Assembly (NCBI GenBank): GCA_031256725.1 | Contig: JAIRQE010000021.1 | Location: 180,001-212,000, forward strand | DNA: 32,000 nucleotides | DNA from: Propionibacteriaceae bacterium | Lineage (GTDB): Bacteria > Actinomycetota > Actinomycetes > Propionibacteriales > Propionibacteriaceae | Reading direction: 5' to 3' | Shown: in pieces, positions 1,016-31,280 of the stretch | Position numbering within the stretch: position 1 is the first letter of the stretch | Layout: every line of letters starts with the position of its first letter | Notes under the pieces: model-generated | The model's input: the letters and a program-made list of their open reading frames with translations, nothing else | Database searches by the model: none | What the model was told of the DNA's origin: nothing | Translations under genes and position numbers: made by a program

Positions 1016-1603
1016 CTACGAGTTCCGTGGTTCGATCAATGGTGGTGAAGCCACTGGTAATTGATTGTGAGCGAAGGAGTACCCCTGGGCGCTGCCAAAG
1101 ACAACAGGATTTGTACTAGATCCCTTGATTGAATAGGCCCACTGACCCTCAGCGTTCTCAATCCAATAGGTCCAATAGGCCGCTGCAGGTGGGGTATTGA
1201 CACAGACTTCGGTATAAGAGTCCTGTCCAGGAATGGGGATCACTTGATCAACAGTGGGGTACCCGTTCAAGCGACAAATGAAATGGGGGGAGTTCGACGG
1301 TTCGAGAACAGTGATACCGAGGGCGTTGAGGGCATCAAGACCAGTCGCACCCTCATGAAGGTTGTAAGCGCACCCGATGGTCGGGTCTGGGCCCAGGTCA
1401 CCGTAATCCACGATGACCGTGACAGCATTGTGGTCCTCTGACGTGCAATATCCTGACTTTCCAGCCCCGGATGGTGGTGGGGCGACGCAGGAATTCAGCA
1501 AGGGGAGTACCACTGTGATCACCAGGGCAAGACCCCATCTCGCGGGAGTAGGTTGTTCGCGAGGGGTACAGCCCGTGGACCCAGGACCCGACCGGGGAGC
1601 CAC
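1016..1603 (-). CDS. DUF4430-like (transcobalamin beta-domain-like) putative lipoprotein
   Basis: The C-terminal ~120 aa ('VTVIVDYGDLG...GATGLDALNALG...YWTYWIENAEGQWAYSIKGSS...GSAQGYSF') fit the DUF4430 pattern. The hydrophobic segment 'WGLALVITVVLPLLNSC' looks like a signal peptide with a lipobox. I place the start at the in-frame GTG at 1603, which overlaps the upstream TAG by 1 nt (TAGTG); the longest ORF runs to 1684 but would overlap the upstream gene by 82 nt. Confidence 0.7.
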   Translation of the reverse strand: MAPRSGPGSTGCTPREQPTPARWGLALVITVVLPLLNSCVAPPPSGAGKSGYCTSEDHNAVTVIVDYGDLGPDPTIGCAYNLHEGATGLDALNALGITVLEPSNSPHFICRLNGYPTVDQVIPIPGQDSYTEVCVNTPPAAAYWTYWIENAEGQWAYSIKGSSTNPVVFGSAQGYSFAHNQLPVASPPLIEPRNS

Positions 1604-2796
1604 TACTTCCGCCTGGATGCTAGGACTCTCCAGACGATGATGGCTAGGGATAGCAAGACGATCCCGCCAACAACTCCCAACCAAATGGGTACAGCAATTC
1701 CCGTGGCTTGGGTGGGTGGCTCAGAGGTACTCTCACACATAGGTCCAGGTACATCGACGACAAGGGTGGGTACAGTGGTATCAGCCACTGGAATGAATCC
1801 GATCAGTCCGAAGATGCCTTGGGCGCCAGCCTGGAAGAGTCCAACCTGAATGTCAAGGGAGTATGGGTTCGTAGAAGTGGATTCAAAGGTGGCAGTATCC
1901 AAGGCCATGGCTCCAGCAAGGTCAGATCCTGCCTCGCAATCAAAGATGAGAGAGGTAAGGAAACTCTTGGCCTTCTCCAGGGATTCGGTGTAGTCCTGAC
2001 CGAAATAAGTCAGAGCAGCAACAGCAAGACCTGTTGTGTTGGCATTTGGGCCCGACCATGGGGAAACAAAACCACCAGTGGAATCCTGGATAGTTGTCAG
2101 ATAGGCAGCTGACGAGGCCAGATCATCCAAGTCAACGCCAGCAGCCCTCAGAGCAATGATTGCCAAAGCAGTCGAATCAGGGTCCGCATCATCGCAAGAG
2201 CCCGGGCCGGAGAAACCATATCCTCCAAGACCAGGAGAAGTCGTATCAACACAGGGCTGTTCAAGGAGCCAGTCGATGGTTGCCTGGGGTACTCCATCCT
2301 CGGAGGTCAACAGAGCCAGGATCGCGAAAGCCTGTCCATAAGCCGAGGGCATCTCTGAGATGGATCCATCGGAGTTGATCGCTGAGGTGAGATCAGCATA
2401 GAGGTCACGGGTCCCATTCTCGGTAGCGTGGTTGCGGGGATCCAATCCGGTGGCATCCTGGGCAAGAATCATCAGAGCAATGGCTGTCGCCTTGGCCCCG
2501 ATCTGCTCAGGACCCGAGATGAAGTCCTCTCCACTGGCTGCCATAGCTTCAGCGGAGGCCACGATCTGGTCGCCAGCGACCCCAGTACCTTTGAGTCCGA
2601 GGATGGCATAGGTGGTACTTGCGTAATCAACGGTTCCTGTTTGTCCCAAAGCCAGATCATTGGTGACAGCTAGGGATCGAGCCAACCAGCCAGCAAGATC
2701 ATGGGATTGATCCTCGGATGCCTGAGCAGGTACCACTGGGGCCAGGATGACAAAAAGGGCAAGAACGCCAACAATAAGGCGCTTAAAATAATGCAC
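1603..2796 (-). CDS. Secreted prenyltransferase/terpene-cyclase-like (alpha/alpha toroid) repeat protein with C-terminal membrane or cell-wall anchor
   Basis: 397 aa with a GTG start. Signal peptide 'MHYFKRLIVGVLALFVILAPVVPAQA'. Repeated helical-hairpin motifs ('AYGQAFAILAL', 'DSTALAIIAL', 'NTTGLAVAAL') are typical of prenyltransferase/squalene-oxidase repeats. The C-terminus 'PTQATGIAVPIWLGVVGGIVLLSLAIIVWRVLASRRK' is a hydrophobic helix plus basic tail, like a sortase sorting signal but without a canonical LPXTG. Confidence 0.75.
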   Translation of the reverse strand: MHYFKRLIVGVLALFVILAPVVPAQASEDQSHDLAGWLARSLAVTNDLALGQTGTVDYASTTYAILGLKGTGVAGDQIVASAEAMAASGEDFISGPEQIGAKATAIALMILAQDATGLDPRNHATENGTRDLYADLTSAINSDGSISEMPSAYGQAFAILALLTSEDGVPQATIDWLLEQPCVDTTSPGLGGYGFSGPGSCDDADPDSTALAIIALRAAGVDLDDLASSAAYLTTIQDSTGGFVSPWSGPNANTTGLAVAALTYFGQDYTESLEKAKSFLTSLIFDCEAGSDLAGAMALDTATFESTSTNPYSLDIQVGLFQAGAQGIFGLIGFIPVADTTVPTLVVDVPGPMCESTSEPPTQATGIAVPIWLGVVGGIVLLSLAIIVWRVLASRRK

Positions 2797-16540: not shown

Positions 16541-17152
16541 TCACCGTTGTGCAGACTTGGGAAGCCTAAGCCCTTCAATCCCCAACTCCAGGTCGGCTAG
16601 TTTACGGATGATGGCCGCATCCCCACGTTGCCAGGCACCCATGGGGTCGGGGGTGATCTTGACTAACTCGTGCATGGGAGCGTGGGCGATGGCCCGCAGG
16701 GCAAACAATTCGGGGCTGGTCTCGGCAGGGAGGAGTTTCTGTCCGGCGGTGGCTTCGCGTACGAAAGAAAACCTCCAGGGGAACCACTTCCAGATATAGG
16801 CCACAACCGGTACCACCACCACGATGATGCCCAAAACCAGGGCAGTGGTGTGTACCAAAGAAATCAGCTGCTCGACCGAGATCACGAGGGCCCCGAGGGC
16901 GATATCGAGGGAATTGAAGGGTGTCGCCAAAACTGGACCCACGAGGGGCAGTCCTGCGACCGAATCTGCTGCGGTGGCCATGGAACCGGAGACATTGGCG
17001 GCTGTCTCCTGTGCCATCTCGGCGGGTTTAGCGAACAGGAGTACGAACTCGCGTACCTTCACACCTAGGAAAATCCATAGGGCGATCCAAAGAATGAGAC
17101 CCAGATCAGAGAGAATCTGGGGGACTATCTTGTTTGTTTTCGCGTAGAGCAT
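16541..17152 (-). CDS. Hypothetical integral membrane protein
   Basis: 203-aa ORF with an ATG start and three or four hydrophobic segments ('LGLILWIALWIFLG', 'TALVLGIIVVVVPVVAYIW'), followed by a soluble C-terminal region. I recognise no family. Confidence 0.6.
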   Translation of the reverse strand: MLYAKTNKIVPQILSDLGLILWIALWIFLGVKVREFVLLFAKPAEMAQETAANVSGSMATAADSVAGLPLVGPVLATPFNSLDIALGALVISVEQLISLVHTTALVLGIIVVVVPVVAYIWKWFPWRFSFVREATAGQKLLPAETSPELFALRAIAHAPMHELVKITPDPMGAWQRGDAAIIRKLADLELGIEGLRLPKSAQR

Positions 17153-18843: not shown

Positions 18844-19662
18844 ATGACATCTGAGTTCGCACGCGGTACCCACAGCGGGGGATTCCCCCCAACGGCCACC
18901 AGTGAAGAAGTTCACGGTGACCCTGTGGGTACCGCGTCGTCTCTTTTTCTCAAGAAGCAAACAGTCGACGAGGTACCAGTTGAGGTTCTACCTGTTCCTG
19001 AGATGACAGGTGAGGTCGCCAGGGTAGATGAGCTAGCCCCTGGAGGAGATCCCAAGGAACCGGTCACTGAGGTGGCTCCCGTCATCCCACCTCCCGAGAT
19101 TGAAACCCTGCCGCCCCTAGACCCCGATTCCGAGATAGGGTACACGCGGAGCAAGCGTACGGGCGAGCCTAAGCACCCCGGTATTGTGGCTGTTGCATCG
19201 GCCTTGTGCTGGGCTTCCATCCCGGTCACCATCGTCGCTTATGCCCGCTGGTGGTGGCAGGCAGCAACCGTTGACGGACTTCATGAGAGCGCCCAGCTGT
19301 TGTCTTGGGTTCAGCCTGACCCAGTTTCTGCACCAGCGATCATCCTGGTGGTACTCATCTCCCTGATTGCAGTACTCATGGTGGCTGCTGGAGGTACCGC
19401 TGGCTATAACATCTGGACTGGTCAACCCTGGATCCGTGTCGGTGTACTTGTGTGCTTGGCCGTGACGGGCTTGTCCTTCCTTCTCAATTGGTGGTTCACT
19501 GCTGCGATGATCCCGCTAGCATTGGGGGCCTTATTATTGTGGTTCCCCCAAGTCAGGGGTTTCCTCACCGATATGAAAACCCACCAATCCATTCCCCTAG
19601 TGGAGACCCCAACTGAGTCTGTACGCTATGGCCCGCAGCCGTTGATTGGTGAACGAGGCTAA
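18844..19662 (+). CDS. Hypothetical membrane protein with Pro/Glu/Val-rich N-terminal region
   Basis: The ATG directly abuts the upstream TAA (TAAATG). The N-terminal ~110 aa are low complexity, followed by about four TM helices ('GIVAVASALCWASIPVTIVAY', 'AIILVVLISLIAVLMVAAGG', and others). No family recognised. Confidence 0.55.
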   Translation: MTSEFARGTHSGGFPPTATSEEVHGDPVGTASSLFLKKQTVDEVPVEVLPVPEMTGEVARVDELAPGGDPKEPVTEVAPVIPPPEIETLPPLDPDSEIGYTRSKRTGEPKHPGIVAVASALCWASIPVTIVAYARWWWQAATVDGLHESAQLLSWVQPDPVSAPAIILVVLISLIAVLMVAAGGTAGYNIWTGQPWIRVGVLVCLAVTGLSFLLNWWFTAAMIPLALGALLLWFPQVRGFLTDMKTHQSIPLVETPTESVRYGPQPLIGERG

Positions 19663-19720
19663 GCGGACCACGGAATATTCACTGGCAAGAATCCGTTGTA
19701 GTGGTATTAGGAGTACCACT

Positions 19721-20800
19721 ATGCAATTCGGAGTCTTTTCTGTTGCGGATGTTACTCGTGACCCGGTGACCGGGATCACTCCCTCGCCTACTCAAAGGAT
19801 CGAGGAGTTGATTCTCATTGCCCGGATCGCTGAGGAGGTCGGTCTGGATGTTTTTGCTGTTTCTGAACATCATGATCCCCATTTCATCTGCTCATCTCCA
19901 ACAATATTTCTTGCCGCAGTAGCGGCTCAGACTTCACGGATCATCCTGTCGACCGCAGTCACCCTCATCACCGCAAATGACCCCGTACGCATCGCTGAAG
20001 AGTACGCCCTCCTCCAACATATCTGTCATGGCCGTTCCGACCTGATGGTGAGTCCAGGAAATACTCTGCCTGTACATTCGTGGAAGTCCTATGAGGCCCG
20101 CACATCAATGGACATGGTTATCGAGAACTATTATCTTCTCACCCGTCTGTGGCGTGAGGAGGGGATCGAGTGGGATGGGAGCTTCCACACCCCACTGATT
20201 GACTTCACATCGACTCCGCGCCCCTACAACAAGGCCCCATTCGTCTGGCATAATGCAACCCGCTTCCCAGGGATCGCTGACCAGGCTGCCTTCTATGGGG
20301 ATGGATTCTTCGTCAACAACCTTGGTACCCCTCCTTATGAGGAAGCGCAACTGGTGGCACACTATCGGAATTCTTTCGAGAGGTACGGTCATGGTCGAGC
20401 CGATCAAGCCATCGTCGGTTTGGGTGGACAGGTCTTTATCGCACAGAACTCCCAGGACGCCTACACATCCTTTCGCCCCTATTTTGAGGGGTCCGTCCTC
20501 TACGGGATGACCCTGGACGAGGCTGTGGCCCGTACCTCTTTGGCTGTGGGGTCTGTACAGCAGGTGGTCGAGAAACTCCTGACCACTCGGGAACTCTATG
20601 GTGATTATCAGCGCCAACTCTTCTGGATCGACCCGGGAGGTCTACCATTGTGGACGGTACTCGAACAGCTAGAGCTTCTAGGATCAGCAGTGGTACCCAT
20701 CTTGAAAAGCGAATTCGATAGGTACCGCCCCCGGGTTCTCCCTCCAATCCTCCTGCTTATGGGCGGTAACCCTGGGAGCTATCACAACTTCGGAGTATAA
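19721..20800 (+). CDS. LLM-class (luciferase-like) flavin-dependent oxidoreductase
   Basis: 'MQFGVFSVADVTRDP...RIEELILIARIAEEVGLDVFAVSEHH' is the typical LLM N-terminus. The ATG at 19721 has AGGAG upstream. The last ~7 codons and the stop lie inside repeat copy A. Confidence 0.8.
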   Translation: MQFGVFSVADVTRDPVTGITPSPTQRIEELILIARIAEEVGLDVFAVSEHHDPHFICSSPTIFLAAVAAQTSRIILSTAVTLITANDPVRIAEEYALLQHICHGRSDLMVSPGNTLPVHSWKSYEARTSMDMVIENYYLLTRLWREEGIEWDGSFHTPLIDFTSTPRPYNKAPFVWHNATRFPGIADQAAFYGDGFFVNNLGTPPYEEAQLVAHYRNSFERYGHGRADQAIVGLGGQVFIAQNSQDAYTSFRPYFEGSVLYGMTLDEAVARTSLAVGSVQQVVEKLLTTRELYGDYQRQLFWIDPGGLPLWTVLEQLELLGSAVVPILKSEFDRYRPRVLPPILLLMGGNPGSYHNFGV

Positions 20801-22548: not shown

Positions 22549-22714
22549 GGAGAAAAGATGCAGGGCGATGTACAAGTCATACCATGGTAGGAGGCACCCC
22601 CTGAATTCTGGGGATCAGGGGGTGGGTGGTACCCACCATGGAAATCCTGAGTTCTCCCTGAAGGGTACTGTTTTCCCTTGAGGAATGGTGTTTTTCCGTC
22701 CTAGGGTCGTAAAC

Positions 22715-23482
22715 ATGACAAACACACAATCGATAAACCAAACTATTGGACAAGGTGCTGACGTGATCTCGGCGGCACATCTGGTCAAGATCTACGGGGA
22801 GGGTGATACCCAGGTACGAGCGTTGGATCGAGTCAATGCCGGATTCAAAAAGGGTACCTTCACCGCAATCATGGGGCCATCGGGTTCAGGGAAGTCGACC
22901 CTCATGCATTGCCTCGCGGGACTTGACCGGGCAACATCCGGGCAGATCCTCCTAGGTGGTTCACACTTGGAGGGAATGGATGACAATGCGCTCACCACCC
23001 TTCGACGTGATCATGTGGGGTTTATCTTTCAATCCTTCAACCTTCTCCCAACCCACACTGCGAAGGAGAATATCCTGTTGCCGCTCGAATTGGCTGGCCG
23101 TAAGGTTGACAAGGTTTTCATGGCGAGCCTCGTCAAATCGCTTGGACTGACTGGGCGTTTGGGGCATCGTCCCTCCCAGTTGTCTGGGGGCGAACAGCAA
23201 AGGGTTGCAGTGGTACGCGCACTCGTTGGTCGTCCAGCGGTTGTTTTCGCGGATGAACCCACGGGAGCCCTCGACACCCGCAACTCTCATCACCTGTTGT
23301 CCTATCTTCGATCAGCTAGTCGTACCGAGGGTCAAACCATCATCATGGTCACCCACGACACCAAGGCTGCCTCCTATGTTGATCGCGCGCTGATCCTCTC
23401 CGATGGACAGATCCGTGAGGATATCCCTTCGCCTACAGAGGATTCGGTCATCACTGCAATGCGTTTTGCTGGAGGTGAGTAA
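22715..23482 (+). CDS. ABC transporter ATP-binding protein (MacB/BceA-like)
   Basis: Walker A 'GPSGSGKST', signature 'LSGGEQQRVAVVRAL', Walker B 'VVFADEPTGALD', H-loop 'MVTHD'. The start is either ATG 22715 or ATG 22685, and neither has a strong RBS. Confidence 0.9.
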   Translation: MTNTQSINQTIGQGADVISAAHLVKIYGEGDTQVRALDRVNAGFKKGTFTAIMGPSGSGKSTLMHCLAGLDRATSGQILLGGSHLEGMDDNALTTLRRDHVGFIFQSFNLLPTHTAKENILLPLELAGRKVDKVFMASLVKSLGLTGRLGHRPSQLSGGEQQRVAVVRALVGRPAVVFADEPTGALDTRNSHHLLSYLRSASRTEGQTIIMVTHDTKAASYVDRALILSDGQIREDIPSPTEDSVITAMRFAGGE

Positions 23483-23484
23483 TC

Positions 23485-25413
23485 GTGTCCAGACTGCCCA
23501 TGCTGAGAGTGGCGCTCAAAGAGATGAGGTACCACCCGGCTCGCTATCTCGCCACAGTGATCTCTATTGCGATCTCTGTGGGTTTCCTGGCGGCTGCATC
23601 AATCATTTCTGCAACCGAATCCCAAGCGAAGACCTTCCAAGCAGTCGATGTTGGCGGGATGGATGCCTCGTCAGTTATTCTGTGGGTCTTCGCTGGGATT
23701 GCAATGGTGACGGGGTTGATCACCATCTCGAACACTTTCACGATCCTATTAGAGCAACGTCGACGTCAGATCGGACTCCTACGCTCGATTGGTACCTCAA
23801 CCACCCAGATTCGTAGATCTATCTGGTTGGAGGCCGGATTCCTTGGGTTCGTTGGTAGCCTGCTCGGCATCGGTTTAGCCTTTGGGTTGTCAGCCATCTT
23901 GGCGATCTACACAGGAGCTATCAAGCATGGACTAGCTGTGCCCTATGCTGCCATCAACATCGCCTTCGCCTTGGGAGTGGTCATCACGATGGTTGCTGCC
24001 ATTGCTCCCTCCCACCGGGCCACACGGGTACCTCCCCTGGAAGCCTTACGTCCAACCTCGACTGTACTCAAGATCACACAGGGTTCTATTGCACGGGCAG
24101 CGATATGTACCCTTCTTGTGGTTGTGGGGATGGCGGGAGCACTGTACTCCCTGACGTTAACAAAGAATGCCTTGTCGGTTGCAATTCTGTCTGCCATGGC
24201 TATTGCTTTGGGAGTACTGTTTGGGGCGAGATTCTATGTACCCTCCATGCTGAAGGCTGCCGGGTGGCTTGTTCACCGTATTGGGCCGACCACCTCAACG
24301 GCGGCCAAAAACCTCATGCGCAACCCTGCGCGTACTGCTGCAACATCGACGGCACTCATGTTGGCTGTGGGGCTGATCATCACCCTTCAGGTGGGCACAG
24401 CATCGATGGGTGCCACAGTCGCTGGGGTCTTGGATTCCGAATACCCAGTGGAGCTCTTTGTGGAGGCCCACATAGACCCCGAGGGAGCTATGAGTCTGTC
24501 GAAGAATACGGTGTCGCGTCTGAGTCAGGTGTCCGGAATTGCTTCCGCGGAACCGATCGAATGCCGTTCTATTGAAGAGCTCACAGATAGGCAGTATCCA
24601 AGACTTAATCGGGTGTGTGAGTACACCCCTCAACTGGCTCAGCTCTCGCCAGGGTTGCCCGACTCTATCGGTGATCAGGAGATTCTGGTCAACGAGTACG
24701 CACGCTCATCGATTACTGAATCAGCGATCACTTTGGCTGCCAAAACTGGGTTGGTACTTGTGGAGCCTCAGGCCTCCAAGGCAGCCATGGGTAATTATGC
24801 CTTCGTTTCCCCAGCAACCTATGTTGCCTTGGCTGGTGAATCCAATAGGGCTTCCTTGGTTTTCATGAGCCTTGCAGATTCGAAGAATCTTGCCACAGTA
24901 GCCAAAGAACTCGCCGAGATCCTGAAGCAGAACAATACCCCTGGGGATCTTGCGGGGGCGGCCTACCAGAAGTCGGTATTGAACACAGCAACGAATGTCA
25001 TCCTCGGTGTTGTGACCGTACTGATGGGGGTTGCGATCGTCATTGCGCTCATTGGGGTTGGGAACACGCTGATGCTGTCGGTGCTTGAACGTACCCGTGA
25101 CAATGCGACCCTTCGAGCCTTGGGATTCAAACGTGGACAGCTTAGGGTAATGCTCTTCATCGAGTCCATGATGTTGTCCCTTGTCGCAGTCATTATTGGG
25201 GCTGGATTCGGAGTTTTCTTCGGGTATTTAGGCACTCGGGCAATCTCCAGTATGTTCACCTTTGGTGTTCAGCTTCCAGTACATATCGCCCTCAACTGGG
25301 ATTACACCCTCGCACTAATTGGGGCGATAGTGGTGGCTGCTGGGTTGGCTTCCGTCCTGCCGGGCAGATGCGCGGCAAAAGCCAGTCCGGTCGCCTCCCT
25401 CGCCGAGGCCTAA
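23485..25413 (+). CDS. FtsX-family ABC permease with BceB-like architecture (10 TM, large extracytoplasmic domain between TM7 and TM8)
   Basis: 642 aa, with a GTG start 3 nt after the ATPase stop and GGAGGTGAG upstream. It has two FtsX-type modules ('LEQRRRQIGLLRSIGTSTTQI', 'LERTRDNATLRALGFKRGQL'). By hand-assigned hydrophobic segments, a ~190-aa hydrophilic block lies between TM7 and TM8. Confidence 0.85.
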   Translation: MSRLPMLRVALKEMRYHPARYLATVISIAISVGFLAAASIISATESQAKTFQAVDVGGMDASSVILWVFAGIAMVTGLITISNTFTILLEQRRRQIGLLRSIGTSTTQIRRSIWLEAGFLGFVGSLLGIGLAFGLSAILAIYTGAIKHGLAVPYAAINIAFALGVVITMVAAIAPSHRATRVPPLEALRPTSTVLKITQGSIARAAICTLLVVVGMAGALYSLTLTKNALSVAILSAMAIALGVLFGARFYVPSMLKAAGWLVHRIGPTTSTAAKNLMRNPARTAATSTALMLAVGLIITLQVGTASMGATVAGVLDSEYPVELFVEAHIDPEGAMSLSKNTVSRLSQVSGIASAEPIECRSIEELTDRQYPRLNRVCEYTPQLAQLSPGLPDSIGDQEILVNEYARSSITESAITLAAKTGLVLVEPQASKAAMGNYAFVSPATYVALAGESNRASLVFMSLADSKNLATVAKELAEILKQNNTPGDLAGAAYQKSVLNTATNVILGVVTVLMGVAIVIALIGVGNTLMLSVLERTRDNATLRALGFKRGQLRVMLFIESMMLSLVAVIIGAGFGVFFGYLGTRAISSMFTFGVQLPVHIALNWDYTLALIGAIVVAAGLASVLPGRCAAKASPVASLAEA

Positions 25414-25511
25414 ACAGACCTCGGCGTAGGCTTTGTTACCTTGTGCCTTCCTCGGAAGAGTTGCTTGTGACAGGATGATCACAGGTACCCTTCCAGGGAA
25501 GGCACGAGGTT

Positions 25512-26030
25512 ATGGGAACACAAATCGCGGTCAACACGGCGGTGAGTGCCCTTGAAACGGCACTTGTTATGGAAAACCATCAGAAGATGGTGTACGCCAT
25601 AGCGGTCACGCATACACGCAATCGTGTGGATGCCGAAGATGTGTTCCAGGAGGTTTTCCTCACCTATCACCGCAAACAACCGGTGTGTGAAAATGAGGAG
25701 CATCGCAAAGCATGGCTCATCAGAACAACCCTCAACATTGCTCGCCGATATACGAGTTCTTCATGGAGTACCCGCGTGGTACCTGTGGAAACAGTTGAGT
25801 GTGGTCAGACCTACCGTTTCGATAATGATGAGTACGACGAACTCTTCCAAGCCTTGAGTGCTCTTCCTGAGAATTACCGTACGGTCATCTATCTGTTCTA
25901 TTTCGAGGATCTGTCTATCGCGCAGATCTCGGATGTCCTAGAGATCGAACCTGGGGCAATCAAGATGAGGCTCTCCCGTGGACGAACCATGCTACGGGAA
26001 GCCATGGTTAAGGAGGATGCACATGTCTGA
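25512..26030 (+). CDS. ECF-type RNA polymerase sigma-70 family factor
   Basis: 172 aa. Region 2 is 'AEDVFQEVFLTYHRK...HRKAWLIRTTLNIARRY' and region 4 is 'LPENYRTVIYLFYFEDLSIAQISDVLEIEPGAIKMRLSRGRTMLRE'. Confidence 0.85.
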   Translation: MGTQIAVNTAVSALETALVMENHQKMVYAIAVTHTRNRVDAEDVFQEVFLTYHRKQPVCENEEHRKAWLIRTTLNIARRYTSSSWSTRVVPVETVECGQTYRFDNDEYDELFQALSALPENYRTVIYLFYFEDLSIAQISDVLEIEPGAIKMRLSRGRTMLREAMVKEDAHV

Positions 26031-28629
26031 CGAGTTCACGGAAAAAATCCATGGGATGAGGGAGTCTTTGACTCCACCACCTGAGTTGATTTCTCGTGTG
26101 ATGGCTGCCCTGGAGGATCAAGGGCAGCATCATATGGTATCACCTAAGGCTGAAACCTCTTCCACGCCAACGAAGGTGGTCAAGAACCGCAAGCCCTCAG
26201 CGAAACCGAAAACACGCAGGAAGGGCAGGCTCAGTATCCTTGTCGGTGGGGCGACCTCAGTCGTACTAGCCGCACTCATGATGGTACCAATGCCAAGCGG
26301 ATTCCAGGGGTATTGGGATACCAAGGCAGGGGCCTATGTCGAGATCTATAGAGCGATTTCTTCAGTACTAGCGCCCAGGGCTGTCTACACATCCGATGTG
26401 GTCTTCGGCACAGAAGCAATTTCTGAGGAAGCACCAGTTCCTGGGGCTGCTGTGCCTTCAGCAGCGAACGATACGGGCGTTACTGAGAGTACGAATACGA
26501 CGTCGGGTATGCCTGAGTCTGAGGCTGGAGCCTCAGGAACCAATACCCAGGTTGAAGGAATCGATGAGGGTGACATCGTCAAGACTGATGGGGCCAACCT
26601 CTATATCTCCCGGGATTATGGGATCGTTGTGGTTTCTGGTGAGGGAGCCCAATCACGACAATTATCCAAGATTAACCTCAAGGAGCCTGAGACCTCCTTT
26701 GTAGCAGAGATGATGATCACTGGTGAGACTCTTGTCATCTTGGTTCAAGACTATGGTCAACCAGGGTGCTACGCATGTGAGTTTTCGTACGACAGATTGA
26801 AGGCTGTCTTCTACGACATCTCAGATCCGGTGAATCCTAGGTACATCTCGGAGATCACCCAGTCAGGGAATTATGTGACCTCACGCTTGAGTGATGGGGT
26901 AATGTACCTTGTCAGCAACTATTACGTCTACAACGACATTGTTGCTGAGGATCCTTCGACCTATGTACCTATAGTCGATAAGGGAGATGGTCCCACCCCT
27001 ATCCCTGCAGGCGATGTCACGATTCTGTCGTGGGTCAATGCCCCGAGCTATACGGTGGTGACTGCCCTTGACGTGGACAACGCCACAGTCATGAGTGAAC
27101 AATCAATTCTGGGTCAAGCCGATAACGTCTACATGAGCCACGAGAACCTCTACCTGGGGTCTCTAGGGTGGCCGCAGTACGATTCCTACACGGGGAAGCA
27201 GTTGCCCTGGGATGAGGATATGCAGATTCCTGGGTACGACAATCATGGGGGGCAACGTAGTGTCATCGTGAAGATGAGCTTGGGTCAGGGCCACCTCGTG
27301 GTGAAGGAGTCTGGTCTTGTTCCTGGATACTTGCTCAGCCAATTCTCTCTCGACGAGTCGGACGGGTACCTTCGTATAGTGACCACCTGGGAGGACACCA
27401 GCAACGGCAGGTGGGTCCCTGCCGCAGCACTGTGGATCTTGGATTCTTCCATGAAGATGGTGGGATCAATACCCCAATTGGTCACCAATGAGACCGTACG
27501 CTCGGTCAGGTTCGCTGGGCCAGTGGGCTATGTTGTCACCTTCGAACAGGTTGACCCACTGTTCACCATAGACCTGTCGAACCCGCGTGATCCCAGGGTA
27601 CAAAGTGCCCTAAAGATCCCGGGATTCTCCTCGTATCTTCATCCTTTCGGTGACGGGTTGCTCCTAGGAATCGGATCCGATGGTGATGAATCCGGCCTCA
27701 ATGGTGGACTCAAGTTGTCGATGTTCGACGTCTCAGATCCCTACGATGTTTCAGAGGTCGCCGTCACAAAGATTGAGGCCAGCGACACAGAGGTTTCCCG
27801 TACCCATAAGGCTGCCTATGTGGACCTACGTCGAGGTACGATCGGATTCCCCACTGTGACCTGGCCCCCCCTAGGGGAGCCAGTGATTGAGGCACCCCCA
27901 GTCGAGCCCACCGAGGTACCCACGGTAGAACCGACTGAGCCCGCAGGTCTCGTCATGCCCGACATGACTGGTTTTTCCGAGAGTGCGACGGCCACCAAAT
28001 TCTTGGCGGGAGGATTCTCCCTGGATTCGATCAGATGGGTCCTCGAGGATTCCCTACACACTCCAGGTTCAGTCATAAGAACTGATCCTGAGCCAGGAAC
28101 ACCCGTAGCCGCAGACACCATAATCACTGTGTATCTTGCAGAGATTGTCCTCAACGTTGGTGAGGACAGATTCGATCCCCCAAGTCTCATCGGACTTTCA
28201 CATGAGCAAGCCGAGCAGATTCTCACGGATGAGGGATTCACGATTGAGTACGTTACGGTCCCCAATCAGGCCCCAGCGGGGGAGTGGCTTGGTACAACAT
28301 GTGAAAGGCGTAAAGAAGGCGTCTGCCAGTTCTACATCTCCGAAGGGCCCCTCTCCACGGACCCAGACCCCGCCACCTCAAGGGCCACTGCAGTACCACT
28401 GCTCGATGAACTACCCTCCACTATAGAAAGGGAGATCTGGAATTACCGGATCTTCACCTGGGATGGTGCACAGTTCACCCCCACCGCCCAGATGACTCTA
28501 GATGGGGACCATTGGAACTACGCCCGAGGAGTACGGATCGCCGACTTCTTCTACATAGCCACTTCAAACAGTGTCCAAGTCTACGAAATGGATGGGTACA
28601 CCGAACTAGCCAAAGTGGTACTCAGTTAG
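26023..28629 (+). CDS. Putative anti-sigma factor fused to an extracytoplasmic beta-propeller domain (PF09826-like) with two inserted PASTA-like modules
   Basis: The ATG at 26023 has AAGGAGG 6 nt upstream and overlaps the sigma gene stop (ATGTCTGA). A short cytoplasmic N-terminus is followed by one TM ('LSILVGGATSVVLAALMMVPMP'). 'TNTQVEGIDEGDIVKTDGANLYI' is the hallmark start of the Beta_propel family. The PASTA-like segments are at 27949-28143 and 28168-28350. Confidence 0.7.
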   Translation: MSDEFTEKIHGMRESLTPPPELISRVMAALEDQGQHHMVSPKAETSSTPTKVVKNRKPSAKPKTRRKGRLSILVGGATSVVLAALMMVPMPSGFQGYWDTKAGAYVEIYRAISSVLAPRAVYTSDVVFGTEAISEEAPVPGAAVPSAANDTGVTESTNTTSGMPESEAGASGTNTQVEGIDEGDIVKTDGANLYISRDYGIVVVSGEGAQSRQLSKINLKEPETSFVAEMMITGETLVILVQDYGQPGCYACEFSYDRLKAVFYDISDPVNPRYISEITQSGNYVTSRLSDGVMYLVSNYYVYNDIVAEDPSTYVPIVDKGDGPTPIPAGDVTILSWVNAPSYTVVTALDVDNATVMSEQSILGQADNVYMSHENLYLGSLGWPQYDSYTGKQLPWDEDMQIPGYDNHGGQRSVIVKMSLGQGHLVVKESGLVPGYLLSQFSLDESDGYLRIVTTWEDTSNGRWVPAAALWILDSSMKMVGSIPQLVTNETVRSVRFAGPVGYVVTFEQVDPLFTIDLSNPRDPRVQSALKIPGFSSYLHPFGDGLLLGIGSDGDESGLNGGLKLSMFDVSDPYDVSEVAVTKIEASDTEVSRTHKAAYVDLRRGTIGFPTVTWPPLGEPVIEAPPVEPTEVPTVEPTEPAGLVMPDMTGFSESATATKFLAGGFSLDSIRWVLEDSLHTPGSVIRTDPEPGTPVAADTIITVYLAEIVLNVGEDRFDPPSLIGLSHEQAEQILTDEGFTIEYVTVPNQAPAGEWLGTTCERRKEGVCQFYISEGPLSTDPDPATSRATAVPLLDELPSTIEREIWNYRIFTWDGAQFTPTAQMTLDGDHWNYARGVRIADFFYIATSNSVQVYEMDGYTELAKVVLS

Positions 28630-28791: not shown

Positions 28792-29265
28792 ATGGCTGAA
28801 GGATCATGGTGGACTGCGCGTAAGTCCGCAACTCTGTCTATCGTTGTTGCTTGGATGGGACTGGTGATAGGAATTGTACTCATTCCCATGCTGATTCCAG
28901 TGTTAAAGATGATCAGGGTAGAGGGAACCATTTTCGATGATGAGTTTATCCTTCGCGCTGCGGGCCCTTTATATGCCTGTCTAGCTTTCGGAATCGCAGC
29001 AGTTGTCATCCTACTGCGACTATTGGGAGATATCCGTCGTGAAGAGGTTTTCACTCAGGCGAATGTACGACGCCTACGACTGATCTCCTATTGCGGGTTC
29101 GCAATCATGGTGTCCAGCGTATTGGGTGCCATTCTCGCTGTACCTCGTCCCTTTTTCATCATCTTGGGTCTCATCGCAGGGTTCCTGGGTTTGCTGATGC
29201 GCGTTGTGAAGAACGTGATTGATGCAGCTCGGTTGCTTAAAGAAGACGCCGACTACACGATCTGA
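28792..29265 (+). CDS. DUF2975-family membrane protein
   Basis: 157 aa with four TM segments. The conserved 'EEVFTQANVRRLRLISYCGF' motif and the C-terminal 'LKEDADYTI' tail fit DUF2975, and it sits in the usual position upstream of a YozG-type HTH gene. Confidence 0.75.
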   Translation: MAEGSWWTARKSATLSIVVAWMGLVIGIVLIPMLIPVLKMIRVEGTIFDDEFILRAAGPLYACLAFGIAAVVILLRLLGDIRREEVFTQANVRRLRLISYCGFAIMVSSVLGAILAVPRPFFIILGLIAGFLGLLMRVVKNVIDAARLLKEDADYTI

Positions 29266-29274
29266 GAGGGAATC

Positions 29275-29493
29275 ATGTCAATCAATCTCAATCTCGACGT
29301 CGTCATGGCGAAGAGACGTATCCCTGCAGGGGAGCTTGCCCATCGCGTTGGCATAACCCCAGCCAATCTTTCCATCCTCAAGAATAATAAGGCCAAGGCT
29401 ATTCGCTTCTCCACCTTGGAGGCCTTGTGCCGCGAACTCGAATGCCAGCCGGGTGACCTGCTGGAGTACATTGAAGGAGATGACCGTGACTAA
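29275..29493 (+). CDS. YozG-type (Cro/C1, XRE superfamily) helix-turn-helix transcriptional regulator
   Basis: 72 aa. 'NLDVVMAKRRIPAGELAHRVGITPANLSILKNNKAKAIRFSTLEALCRELECQPGDLLEY' is the classic YozG/HTH_26 pattern. Confidence 0.85.
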   Translation: MSINLNLDVVMAKRRIPAGELAHRVGITPANLSILKNNKAKAIRFSTLEALCRELECQPGDLLEYIEGDDRD

Positions 29494-31156
29494 ACCTATC
29501 GCCCCACCTCAGTCCATGGATGCACCTCAGCCCATGGGCATACCTCAGCCCATGAACGCGCATCAACCTCCACCACCGAGTTTTTATGTCTACGAATCAC
29601 AATCTAAGAAGGTCTATCCGGTTGACGCAGCGGAAACGGTACTTGCTCTCGTCGTTGTCATGCTTGGTTTTCTTTTCTGGAATTGGTTCATTCCTCGATC
29701 GGGAGACTGGGCAGTAGCGGGGTCTTCAGCGGATCTTGAGTATGGTGGCTTTTACCCAGATTACTATCCAGGCATCGCGATAACCCTCTTCTTTGTTTTG
29801 GCCCTCGCAACCTCGCTGATCTACTTCCAAGCACGTAAAGTCACCCTCTCACAAGGGGGAATGATCGGCGCAGGGATTGTCTTCCTCTCAGCCCTTCCTT
29901 TCGCAATCTATTCTGCGACCCCTCTGCACTTCTTCGCGATCATCTTCACTTTGGGGCTGTACGTACTGTGGCACGCCTACGCCGCCAACACAGCTATCGC
30001 CAAGTTCCCGGGTGTTCTCACAAGTGCTGATTTGCTCAACCAGACCTTGGTCGTACCCTTCTCCAACATGGGTGCCTGGTTTGCGGGCCTGCGTTCTTTT
30101 GGCCACAAAGGAAAGGGTACCAACCAGGTCATCGCCGCCATCGTGGGGATCATTATCGCAGTCCCCATCTTCGCCATCATCATCGCCTTGCTGGCTTCAG
30201 CCGACGCACAATTCAGCACATGGATTGAGGGGATCGGCGTGTACTTTGAAAACCTGAAGGTGGGGAGGTATGTCCTATGCCTGACCTTCGGGTTCCCTGT
30301 GGGGTTCTATATCTTCGCTCTGCTGTACGGGAATGCTCGTCGCATGGGTACCGAAACCATGACGCCAAAGTCGCTGTTGAGTACTGCTCAAAATGCGCGC
30401 AAGGTGAGTATTGTGGCCGTGGGTACTCCTGTGGCCATCTTGGTGCTAATCTATGGTGTCTTTCTTGCGGCAGTGGTCTCCAATCTCCATAAGACGATGA
30501 CGACAGTCCATAGCCCCGATTTCACCTACGCTGAGTTTGCTCGTCGCGGGTTCTTTGAGTTGGCTGTTGTTGCTGGGATCAATCTCGTGATTCTGGGGTT
30601 CATCTACTTGTTCTGTCAGCGCAAACCTGGGCCTTATCCGGTCTTCTTGAGGGTACTGGGATCAACGATGTCGGCTCTGACCTTGGTGATGGTCGTACTG
30701 TCGATCACGAAAATGCTGATGTATTGGGAGCAGTACGGCCTGACTCGCTTGCGTGTGTACACGATGTGGTTCATGTGTGTGATGTTTGTGGTCTTTGCAC
30801 TGCTTCTCGTGTGGCATCTGCGTCGCTTCAAGGTGGGTACCGCCATTGTGATGGTGATGGGTCTGTCGTTCCTTGGGTTGACATGGGCTAACGTGGACTC
30901 CATTATCGCTAATCACAATGTGGATAGGTACCTCAGTGGTCAGGTGGAGACTATCGATGTGGACTATCTGGGGGAGGATCTCTCGGATGCGGCTGTACCG
31001 GCTTTAATCAGGTTGAGTGAGGATCGTCGTGTTCAGGCTCAAGCCAATAGGGCCCTAGCCATTCGCAGAAGTGAGGGTACCAACATGCTTCCGGCAGGTG
31101 ATGCTCCGTGGACAGCTTGGTCCTGGGAGTCTCATCGGGCACATCAGCTTCTGTAG
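29480..31156 (+). CDS. Large polytopic membrane protein, DUF4153/DUF4173-like
   Basis: About 558 aa with a Pro-rich N-terminus, at least 10 hydrophobic segments and a C-terminal 'NHNVDRYLSG...IDVDYLGEDLSDAAVPALIRL' motif. The start is ATG 29480 or GTG 29486 and overlaps the end of the HTH gene. Confidence 0.7.
   Translation: MTVTKPIAPPQSMDAPQPMGIPQPMNAHQPPPPSFYVYESQSKKVYPVDAAETVLALVVVMLGFLFWNWFIPRSGDWAVAGSSADLEYGGFYPDYYPGIAITLFFVLALATSLIYFQARKVTLSQGGMIGAGIVFLSALPFAIYSATPLHFFAIIFTLGLYVLWHAYAANTAIAKFPGVLTSADLLNQTLVVPFSNMGAWFAGLRSFGHKGKGTNQVIAAIVGIIIAVPIFAIIIALLASADAQFSTWIEGIGVYFENLKVGRYVLCLTFGFPVGFYIFALLYGNARRMGTETMTPKSLLSTAQNARKVSIVAVGTPVAILVLIYGVFLAAVVSNLHKTMTTVHSPDFTYAEFARRGFFELAVVAGINLVILGFIYLFCQRKPGPYPVFLRVLGSTMSALTLVMVVLSITKMLMYWEQYGLTRLRVYTMWFMCVMFVVFALLLVWHLRRFKVGTAIVMVMGLSFLGLTWANVDSIIANHNVDRYLSGQVETIDVDYLGEDLSDAAVPALIRLSEDRRVQAQANRALAIRRSEGTNMLPAGDAPWTAWSWESHRAHQLL
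29506..29559 (+). repeat. 3 x 18-bp imperfect tandem repeat inside the CDS (encodes PQ[SP]M repeats)
   Basis: ACCTCAG[T/C]CCATG recurs at 29506, 29524 and 29542, giving the peptide 'PPQSMDAPQPMGIPQPMNA'. Confidence 0.85.
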
Positions 31157-31280
31157 TGACCTGATAGACTTGTCCTTGGTCCCCCGTACGGCGGTACCTC
31201 CCCCAACCCCTCCAGGGCCGGAAGGCAGCAAAGGTAAGGGAGCTCTACTGGGTGTACGGGGGGCTCTTCTGTTTTCAGGG

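Follow-up and report, generated by a model that had tools for sequence, protein, structure and literature searches.

Several sigma factors of the extracytoplasmic function (ECF) type are paired with a membrane partner that reads the state of the envelope: RsiV/SigV senses lysozyme, and RsgI/SigI is a further single-pass anti-sigma system with a ligand-binding ectodomain. In the RsiP/SigP pair, beta-lactams are sensed through PbpP (PMC8092216, PMC8844934). PASTA domains, for their part, are known from penicillin-binding proteins and Ser/Thr kinases, where they sense the wall. In PknB they are required for localization, and PknB binds specific muropeptides (PMC3145798), and discussion of the localization of StkP and PknB (PMC13147305) provides a precedent for a localizing or tuning role. 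Muropeptide binding is not universal among PASTA domains, because PonA2-PASTA binds neither muropeptides nor beta-lactams (PMC6151718). Here we describe a locus in a 32,000-nucleotide chromosomal stretch (the window) of an uncultured Propionibacteriaceae bacterium (contig JAIRQE010000021.1, positions 180,001 to 212,000), where an ECF sigma factor gene is translationally coupled to a gene for a single-pass membrane protein, which we call the partner, whose beta-propeller ectodomain carries two PASTA modules (Table 1).

The original prediction had proposed this architecture, with the two PASTA modules placed before the last propeller strands, and it was borne out together with its coordinates. 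The sigma factor contains only regions sigma2 and sigma4 (Pfam Sigma70_r2, E = 1.6e-9; Sigma70_r4_2, E = 1.8e-14), as is found in ECF sigma factors, and it scored 72.5 bits against NCBIfam TIGR02937 sigma70-ECF (cut-off 42.9). No named ECF equivalog or subfamily was reached in NCBIfam, the best being PRK09415 with 94 bits against a cut-off of 198. The stop of the sigma gene overlaps the ATG of the partner gene at 26023 by 8 nt (ATGTCTGA), as also predicted, and a GGAGG lies 7 nt upstream of this ATG. The mechanical open reading frame (ORF) of the partner opens earlier, at a GTG at 25978; since the homologues all start with 'M[SPN]D..F', which fits at 26023, we took the ATG as the start. Ten Lys or Arg residues lie within the 25 residues ahead of the one transmembrane segment (aa 45-69), and together these features predict an N-in, C-out topology. 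An exact copy of the partner protein (P0001) is held by NCBI/JGI under the name 'MAG: beta-propeller domain-containing protein [Propionibacteriaceae bacterium]', MAG standing for metagenome-assembled genome.

The ectodomain of the partner matches the Beta_propel family PF09826 with 419.6 bits (cut-off 22.4), and the match is split by an insertion into profile positions 2-431 and 442-493 of 495. To place the insertion, we aligned the partner with 16 and then with 110 homologues. The loop between 'GTIGFPTVTW', which ends at aa 612, and 'IWNYRIFTW', which starts at about aa 805, is 194 aa long in the window protein, while the corresponding loop in 109 homologues has a median length of 7 aa and a range of 2 to 35 aa. 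Beyond the loop, the C-terminal part aligns with the C-termini of all homologues, and Y808, F818, R835, and Y844 are conserved. In the full-length AlphaFold model the propeller is all-beta, with a predicted local distance difference test score (pLDDT) above 90 over aa 170-613 and 805-866, the strands of the latter segment scoring 85-98. The PASTA pair is thus a true insertion within the propeller, a possibility that the original prediction had raised. When the propeller model was compared with the PDB by Foldseek, only generic propellers were found (for example, DDB1, tetrathionate hydrolase, and DPP-IV, at no more than 11% identity), and PDB sequence searches with the partner protein and with the family profile returned no propeller or anti-sigma relatives.

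The insert runs from a Pro-rich linker through module 1, a short connector, and module 2 to a second linker. The identity of the inserted modules was examined by profile, sequence, and structure comparisons. The whole partner scored 46.9 bits against the PASTA profile PF03793. Module 1 alone passed the Pfam threshold of 23.2 bits with 37.9 bits and covered positions 2-63 of the 64 in the profile, whereas module 2 alone reached 18.1 bits, below the threshold, and matched only the first half of the profile (positions 4-38). Over 27949-28350 the PASTA profile does score, and this check of the original prediction came out in its favor. When 43 tandem-PASTA segments were used for comparison, module 2 aligned over its full length with their second repeat, apart from a four-residue deletion in the 'sPxxG' loop. 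With the insert alone as query, a word-indexed protein search gave one weak match, and an exhaustive phmmer search among 1.84 billion representatives gave 612 hits at E<=1e-3, many of whose alignments extend from module 1 through module 2. The ten best phmmer hits were scanned with Pfam and all ten carry PASTA domains (nine multi-PASTA proteins and one PASTA kinase, at 26-36% identity to the insert). The PASTA match is no chance pattern, because these hits are numerous and all of the best ten that were scanned are PASTA proteins.

The same conclusion was reached at the level of structure. In the full-length AlphaFold model, whose alignment had no cover over the insert, the insert has a pLDDT below 50. 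Modeled on a dedicated PASTA alignment, aa 636-780 gave a mean pLDDT of 82, with a beta-alpha-beta-beta-beta order in module 1 (pLDDT 84-96) and alpha-beta-beta-beta in module 2 (pLDDT 65-85). All 30 of the best PDB matches found by Foldseek with the PASTA-pair model are PASTA structures (from PknB, PrkC, StkP, PBP2x, PBP1, and PonA2). Single-domain comparisons gave a root-mean-square deviation of 1.3-1.4 A and template modeling scores of 0.82-0.90 to the StkP and PknB PASTA domains, and alignments of about 143 columns cover both modules against tandem PASTA structures. A different fold, which would have spoken against the predicted modules, was not seen. For module 2, which falls short of the Pfam threshold, homology to PASTA is supported by the tandem alignment, the phmmer spans, and the predicted fold.

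Is the insertion restricted to the window protein? Among the best 120 Beta_propel relatives from two large searches, PF03793 was found in the window protein only and was absent in the other 119, and conversely none of the 149 nearest PASTA relatives of the insert contained a propeller. A scan of the GTDB species genomes revealed a second carrier, the Propionibacteriaceae MAG Nt197P3bin38 (locus L010). Its partner protein (L010:3001-5718; WRIJ01000004.1 / Ga0082212_10000073) has 905 aa and is 35% identical to the window protein over the full length, matches Beta_propel and PASTA in Pfam (PASTA 41.4 bits, in two stretches), and carries two modules at the same insertion site. As in the window protein, its module 2 contains a Cys pair. 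The linker between the two L010 modules carries an additional Cys pair, PVPCGHPTQDSNPRDCGP. The sigma factor of L010 is 63% identical to that of the window, and its gene overlaps the partner gene by 8 nt. A third profile search found no further carriers, a metagenome scan with the C-terminal alignment returned only the L010 source contig again, and no PASTA domain was found in the other Propionibacteriaceae homologues L009, L011, and L023. The L010 protein was itself missing from two full-length and profile searches of a protein collection of 5.8 billion clusters, even though its contig is in GTDB and JGI, so absence from that collection is no evidence of absence. We conclude that the PASTA insert is a rare add-on, found in two uncultured Propionibacteriaceae MAGs and thus not unique to the window.

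In a neighbor-joining tree built from the propeller columns only, the window protein and the L010 protein are sisters in 78 of 100 bootstraps, and their next neighbor lacks PASTA. The two carriers are 50% identical in the propeller and 23-30% identical in the PASTA modules, which are the least conserved part of the protein. Because L010 has its insert at the same site and the carriers are sisters, the insert is real, inherited, and was acquired once. Recent horizontal acquisition of the insert was considered and rejected: there is no compositional signal (insert GC 0.567 versus 0.527, no clear anomaly), and the sister lineage has the insert too. A luciferase-like monooxygenase gene lies shortly upstream of the sigma gene in both carriers (window 19646-20800, + strand; L010:1268-2341), the two products being 59% identical; we regard this as remnant synteny, which supports the orthology of the two loci.

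The sigma/propeller pair without PASTA turned out to be common. An ECF sigma gene lies directly upstream of the propeller gene in nine of nine related loci examined (eight homologues: L002, L003/L004, L005, L006, L007, L009, L010, and L023), which cover Propionibacteriaceae, Bifidobacteriaceae, Coriobacteriales, and one 3.25-Mb Bacillota-like genome. The same 8-nt overlap is present in six of the eight homologues (L002, L003/L004, L005, L007, L010, and L023); in L006 a gap of about 100 nt separates the two genes, and in L009 the genes overlap. The sigma factors of these loci are orthologous, with 48-63% identity within Actinomycetota: the window sigma is 63% identical to those of L010 and L002 and 48-54% identical to those of Bifidobacteriaceae and Coriobacteriales. 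The pairing of the sigma factor with a transmembrane propeller protein is therefore widespread across Actinomycetota and Bacillota. Our literature search found no paper describing the sigma/Beta_propel pair or a PASTA-bearing anti-sigma factor, and the main text of the ECF reclassification paper mentions neither propeller nor PASTA; the earlier impression that the combination is undescribed thus stands, though with the diverged copy in L010 it is not a one-off. In the partner of L023 (L023:2506-4983, MAG Nt197P3bin90, Propionibacteriaceae, 825 aa), another loop of the propeller contains an insertion of about 130 aa that is of low complexity and rich in Pro, Thr, Glu, and Ala, which indicates that the loops of this propeller tolerate large insertions.

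The region upstream of the sigma gene is conserved as well. Two blocks, TGTTACCTT-N14-GAGTT in the window (also written TGTTACC-N17-GAGTT), recur with the same spacing 5' of the sigma gene in L002, L003, L009, L010, and L023; L006 and L007 have variants of them. The motif TGTTACCTT-N14-rAGTT is kept at the same position in six loci. It has a single match in the whole window, at 25434-25462, so that no further promoters of a regulon were seen there besides that of the sigma gene. Such a conserved promoter would fit positive autoregulation, which is typical of ECF operons. A second element, GTGACAGGATGATCAC, hardly differs among the four closest loci (the window, L010, L002, and L009) and shows partial dyad symmetry (GTGA...TCAC). 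It may be an operator, or else a leader or 5' untranslated region element.

We propose, with moderate confidence, that the locus is an autoregulated ECF operon in which the partner is likely the anti-sigma factor and the PASTA pair an accessory module for wall contact or localization. By analogy with other ECF pairs, the sigma factor would be held at the membrane by the N-terminal helices of the partner until the ectodomain perceives an event in the envelope. Release would probably proceed through regulated proteolysis of the partner, and the free sigma factor would transcribe its own operon from the TGTTACC-N17-GAGTT promoter. In the common ancestor with Nt197P3bin38, a tandem PASTA segment was inserted into a surface loop of the propeller that is normally short and lies close to its C-terminal end. 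There the pair may contact peptidoglycan or a lipid-linked precursor, by which the propeller sensor would be placed or tuned where the wall is being made. We read the PASTA pair as accessory rather than as the core sensor, since the remaining family members do without it.

Several observations weigh against this proposal. No recognizable anti-sigma Pfam family, whether class I (zf-HC2/RsrA-like) or other, is present in the partner or in 17 homologues, the NCBIfam 'antisigma' model scored only 20.9 bits on the partner (E = 3e-4; cut-off 100), and comparison of an N-terminal profile with the PDB hit no anti-sigma protein of known structure and gave nothing but spurious apolipoprotein A-I helices. 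The Foldseek matches of the propeller give no functional lead on the signal that it might sense. By chance alone the promoter motif is expected about once per 64 kb; the case for the promoter rests only on its positional conservation. Since PASTA segments made up the alignment behind the model of the pair, this model is biased toward the PASTA fold and counts as supporting and not as independent evidence. Finally, an identity of only 23-30% between the PASTA modules of the two carriers could reflect either rapid evolution of an exposed module or weak constraint.

The best-surviving alternative makes the PASTA pair the primary sensor, such that binding of muropeptides or lipid II, or its loss, would release the ECF sigma factor in a wall-damage pathway that needs no kinase. 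The modules are genuine and extracytoplasmic, and they have kept their reading frame while the propellers of the two lineages drifted apart to 50% identity; the PASTA domains of PknB bind muropeptides (PMC3145798), and in Mycobacterium tuberculosis a disturbance of PknB-PASTA and lipid II has been proposed to activate SigE via phosphorylation of RseA (PMC10027907), which gives the logic from PASTA to an ECF sigma factor a precedent. However, in more than 100 relatives the sigma/propeller pair functions without PASTA, so the ancestral sensor would have been something else. The modules are also the least conserved part of the protein, module 2 is without the conserved P-x-x-G loop, and some PASTA domains, as in PonA2, bind no muropeptide (PMC6151718). 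We consider this alternative unlikely, if worth keeping in view. The original prediction had pictured a cell-wall sensor wired to an ECF sigma factor: its premise of genuine, external PASTA modules was confirmed, whereas the function assigned to them goes beyond the evidence, given the many PASTA-less homologues.

The assignment of the partner as an anti-sigma factor draws in part on its short cytoplasmic segment. Two helices, at aa 3-16 and 20-33, were predicted there in the full-length AlphaFold model with pLDDT 77-91, and the motif M.D.(I)F..M..QM.P...L..RL is conserved among the homologues, the N-terminal segment being 56% identical to that of L010. Class II anti-sigma factors have a short two-helix domain, and the N-terminus of the partner may be a domain of this kind. 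As in known anti-sigma genes, the partner gene adjoins the sigma gene, cotranscription with it being indicated by the 8-nt overlap, and the protein is predicted to be N-in and single-pass with a cytoplasmic N-terminus. From gene order, topology, and the conserved 30-aa motif, we infer that the partner is most likely the anti-sigma factor of the adjoining ECF sigma factor, as the original prediction had named it, although it matches no anti-sigma Pfam family.

Alternatively, the partner could be a cotranscribed envelope protein (an enzyme, an adhesin, or a structural protein) under control of a sigma factor that is itself regulated elsewhere. This would agree with the lack of a recognized anti-sigma domain, with a structured cytoplasmic part of only about 30 residues, and with the annotation of the propeller family merely as 'secreted protein with C-terminal beta-propeller domain'. 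Yet the adjacency of the two genes, with overlapping start and stop, is strict across phyla, and conservation of the N-terminal motif equals that of the propeller (56% versus 50%), which a mere anchor would not need. The N-in single-pass topology, moreover, is typical of ECF anti-sigma factors, and the NCBIfam matches of the partner, weak as they are, are to 'antisigma' and CU044_5270. We regard a plain envelope protein as improbable.

The low identity of the insert between carriers, the degenerate module 2, and the low-complexity insertion of about 130 aa that L023 tolerates in a different loop could also mean that the PASTA pair is a neutral or decaying insertion, in which the protein tolerates a longer loop that serves as a spacer at best. 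Against this, neither module has lost its reading frame or a PASTA core able to fold, although the two lineages have diverged; both carriers have the Cys pair in module 2, and functional PASTA repeats are typically just 20-30% identical to each other, so that neutrality is distinctly improbable and the accessory role is preferred. An assembly or binning artefact, in which a PASTA fragment was joined to a propeller gene in a chimera, is exceedingly improbable even for a sequence known only from metagenome assemblies, given that the identical protein occurs on a 240-kb MAG contig and on a separate 23-kb Logan assembly (run SRR14710887), that an independent MAG from another sample shows the same architecture and insertion site at 35% overall identity, and that the reading frame passes from propeller strands through the insert into propeller strands again.

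Table 1 Features of the sigma/propeller locus in window coordinates; aa numbers refer to the partner protein
Feature	Position	Strand	Evidence or remark
Putative ECF-type autoregulatory promoter, TGTTACCTT-N14-GAGTT	25434..25462	+	Two blocks conserved across loci; function predicted
Conserved GTGACAGGATGATCAC element	25467..25482	+	5 nt after putative -10 block
ECF (group 4) sigma factor gene, 172 aa	25512..26030	+	Pfam and NCBIfam matches
Partner gene, 868-aa single-pass membrane protein, putative anti-sigma factor	26023..28629	+	Overlaps sigma gene by 8 nt
Cytoplasmic N-terminal two-helix motif, aa 3-33, proposed sigma-binding part	26029..26121	+	Model and conservation
Transmembrane helix, aa 68-91	26224..26295	+	Single Kyte-Doolittle peak >1.6 in the protein
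Beta_propel, N-terminal and main part, aa 171-612	26533..27858	+	Pfam PF09826, E = 2.4e-125
Opening linker, Pro/Glu/Thr-rich, aa 613-643	27859..27951	+	Not in homologues; disordered in model
PASTA module 1, aa 644-706	27952..28140	+	PF03793, 37.9 bits alone
PASTA module 2, divergent, aa ~718-775, Cys760 and Cys768 flanking a hairpin	28174..28347	+	Tandem alignment and model
Closing linker, aa 776-802	28348..28428	+	Not in homologues; low model confidence
Beta_propel, C-terminal strands, aa 803-868	28429..28626	+	Weak match, profile 442-493 of 495

The content of the window is otherwise ordinary, with a dnaK/dnaJ region, fumarase, transporters, and the bacterial small signal recognition particle RNA (31175-31271, + strand; Rfam RF00169, 63.9 bits). 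Directly upstream of the locus, the genes of a BceAB/MacB-like pair, an ABC ATPase and a permease of 642 aa that carries two FtsX domains (22685-25413, + strand), end 99 nt before the sigma gene. ABC transporter genes likewise flank the sigma/propeller pair in L003/L004, L005, and L007, and they may have a functional link to the pair or belong to its regulon; no copy of the sigma promoter motif precedes those of the window. Three genes follow directly 3' of the partner gene (28792-31156, + strand), encoding a DUF2975 membrane protein, a small HTH_26 (Cro/C1-type) regulator, and a DUF4153 membrane protein, and no clear terminator was seen 3' of the propeller gene. No Pfam match at the thresholds used was obtained for the ORFs at 1603-2796 (- strand, 397 aa), 16541-17152 (- strand, 203 aa), and 18844-19662 (+ strand, 272 aa).

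If the proposal is correct, the presence of PASTA in the partner of an ECF sigma factor would mean that the same module was recruited to a second major signaling system, and the PASTA-bearing and PASTA-less orthologues would form a natural comparison, with and without, of what PASTA contributes. Were the PASTA pair the primary sensor instead, which we hold to be unlikely, a kinase-free route from the wall to transcription would make this the first PASTA-containing anti-sigma factor and would offer a functional handle on a large uncharacterized family of sigma/beta-propeller pairs. The broader point may matter more, namely that a common sigma/propeller pair with a conserved promoter motif, present in gut lineages as well (Bifidobacteriaceae and Coriobacteriales), has no published characterization that we could find. 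The two carriers are known only as MAGs of uncultured bacteria, and shuffled domains are common among the ectodomains of anti-sigma factors. The graft is rare; the locus would operate as other ECF pairs with ligand-binding ectodomains do, with a sensor module taken over from the PASTA kinases.

How does the locus compare with the known systems? The PASTA Hanks-type kinases (PknB of M. tuberculosis, PrkC of Bacillus subtilis and Staphylococcus aureus, and StkP of Streptococcus pneumoniae) resemble the partner in being single-pass proteins whose N-terminal output lies in the cytoplasm and whose tandem PASTA domains are extracytoplasmic; these domains in the kinases contact peptidoglycan fragments or lipid II and guide localization (PMC3145798, PMC13147305), and they are the best structural matches of the insert. 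In contrast to the kinases, the partner has no kinase domain and presents instead a two-helix motif of about 30 aa beside an ECF sigma factor; it has only two PASTA modules, and these are grafted into a propeller loop rather than forming the sole ectodomain. The RsiV/SigV, RsiP/SigP, and RsgI/SigI systems share with the locus the order of an ECF sigma gene followed by an N-in partner with a large external sensor, as well as autoregulation and envelope signals. None of them has a PF09826 propeller with PASTA, however, and the N-terminus of the partner described here matches no class I anti-sigma family, regulated proteolysis being assumed in its case.

In the PknB-RseA-SigE pathway of M. tuberculosis, how active an ECF sigma factor is depends on the status of PASTA and lipid II (PMC10027907). 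That coupling is indirect, as the kinase phosphorylates a soluble anti-sigma factor that is then degraded by ClpC1P2, whereas in the window PASTA and the putative anti-sigma part reside in one polypeptide. Closest in descent are the PASTA-less pairs (for example, P0002-P0120, L002-L009, and L023). Their sigma factors belong to one orthologue group with that of the window, the genes show the 8-nt overlap, and the partners have the N-terminal motif, the transmembrane helix, and the propeller; in Actinomycetota they share the promoter motif as well. They differ from the window locus in the propeller loop: the 2-35 aa that they carry there are replaced in the window protein by the 194-aa insertion with its PASTA pair.

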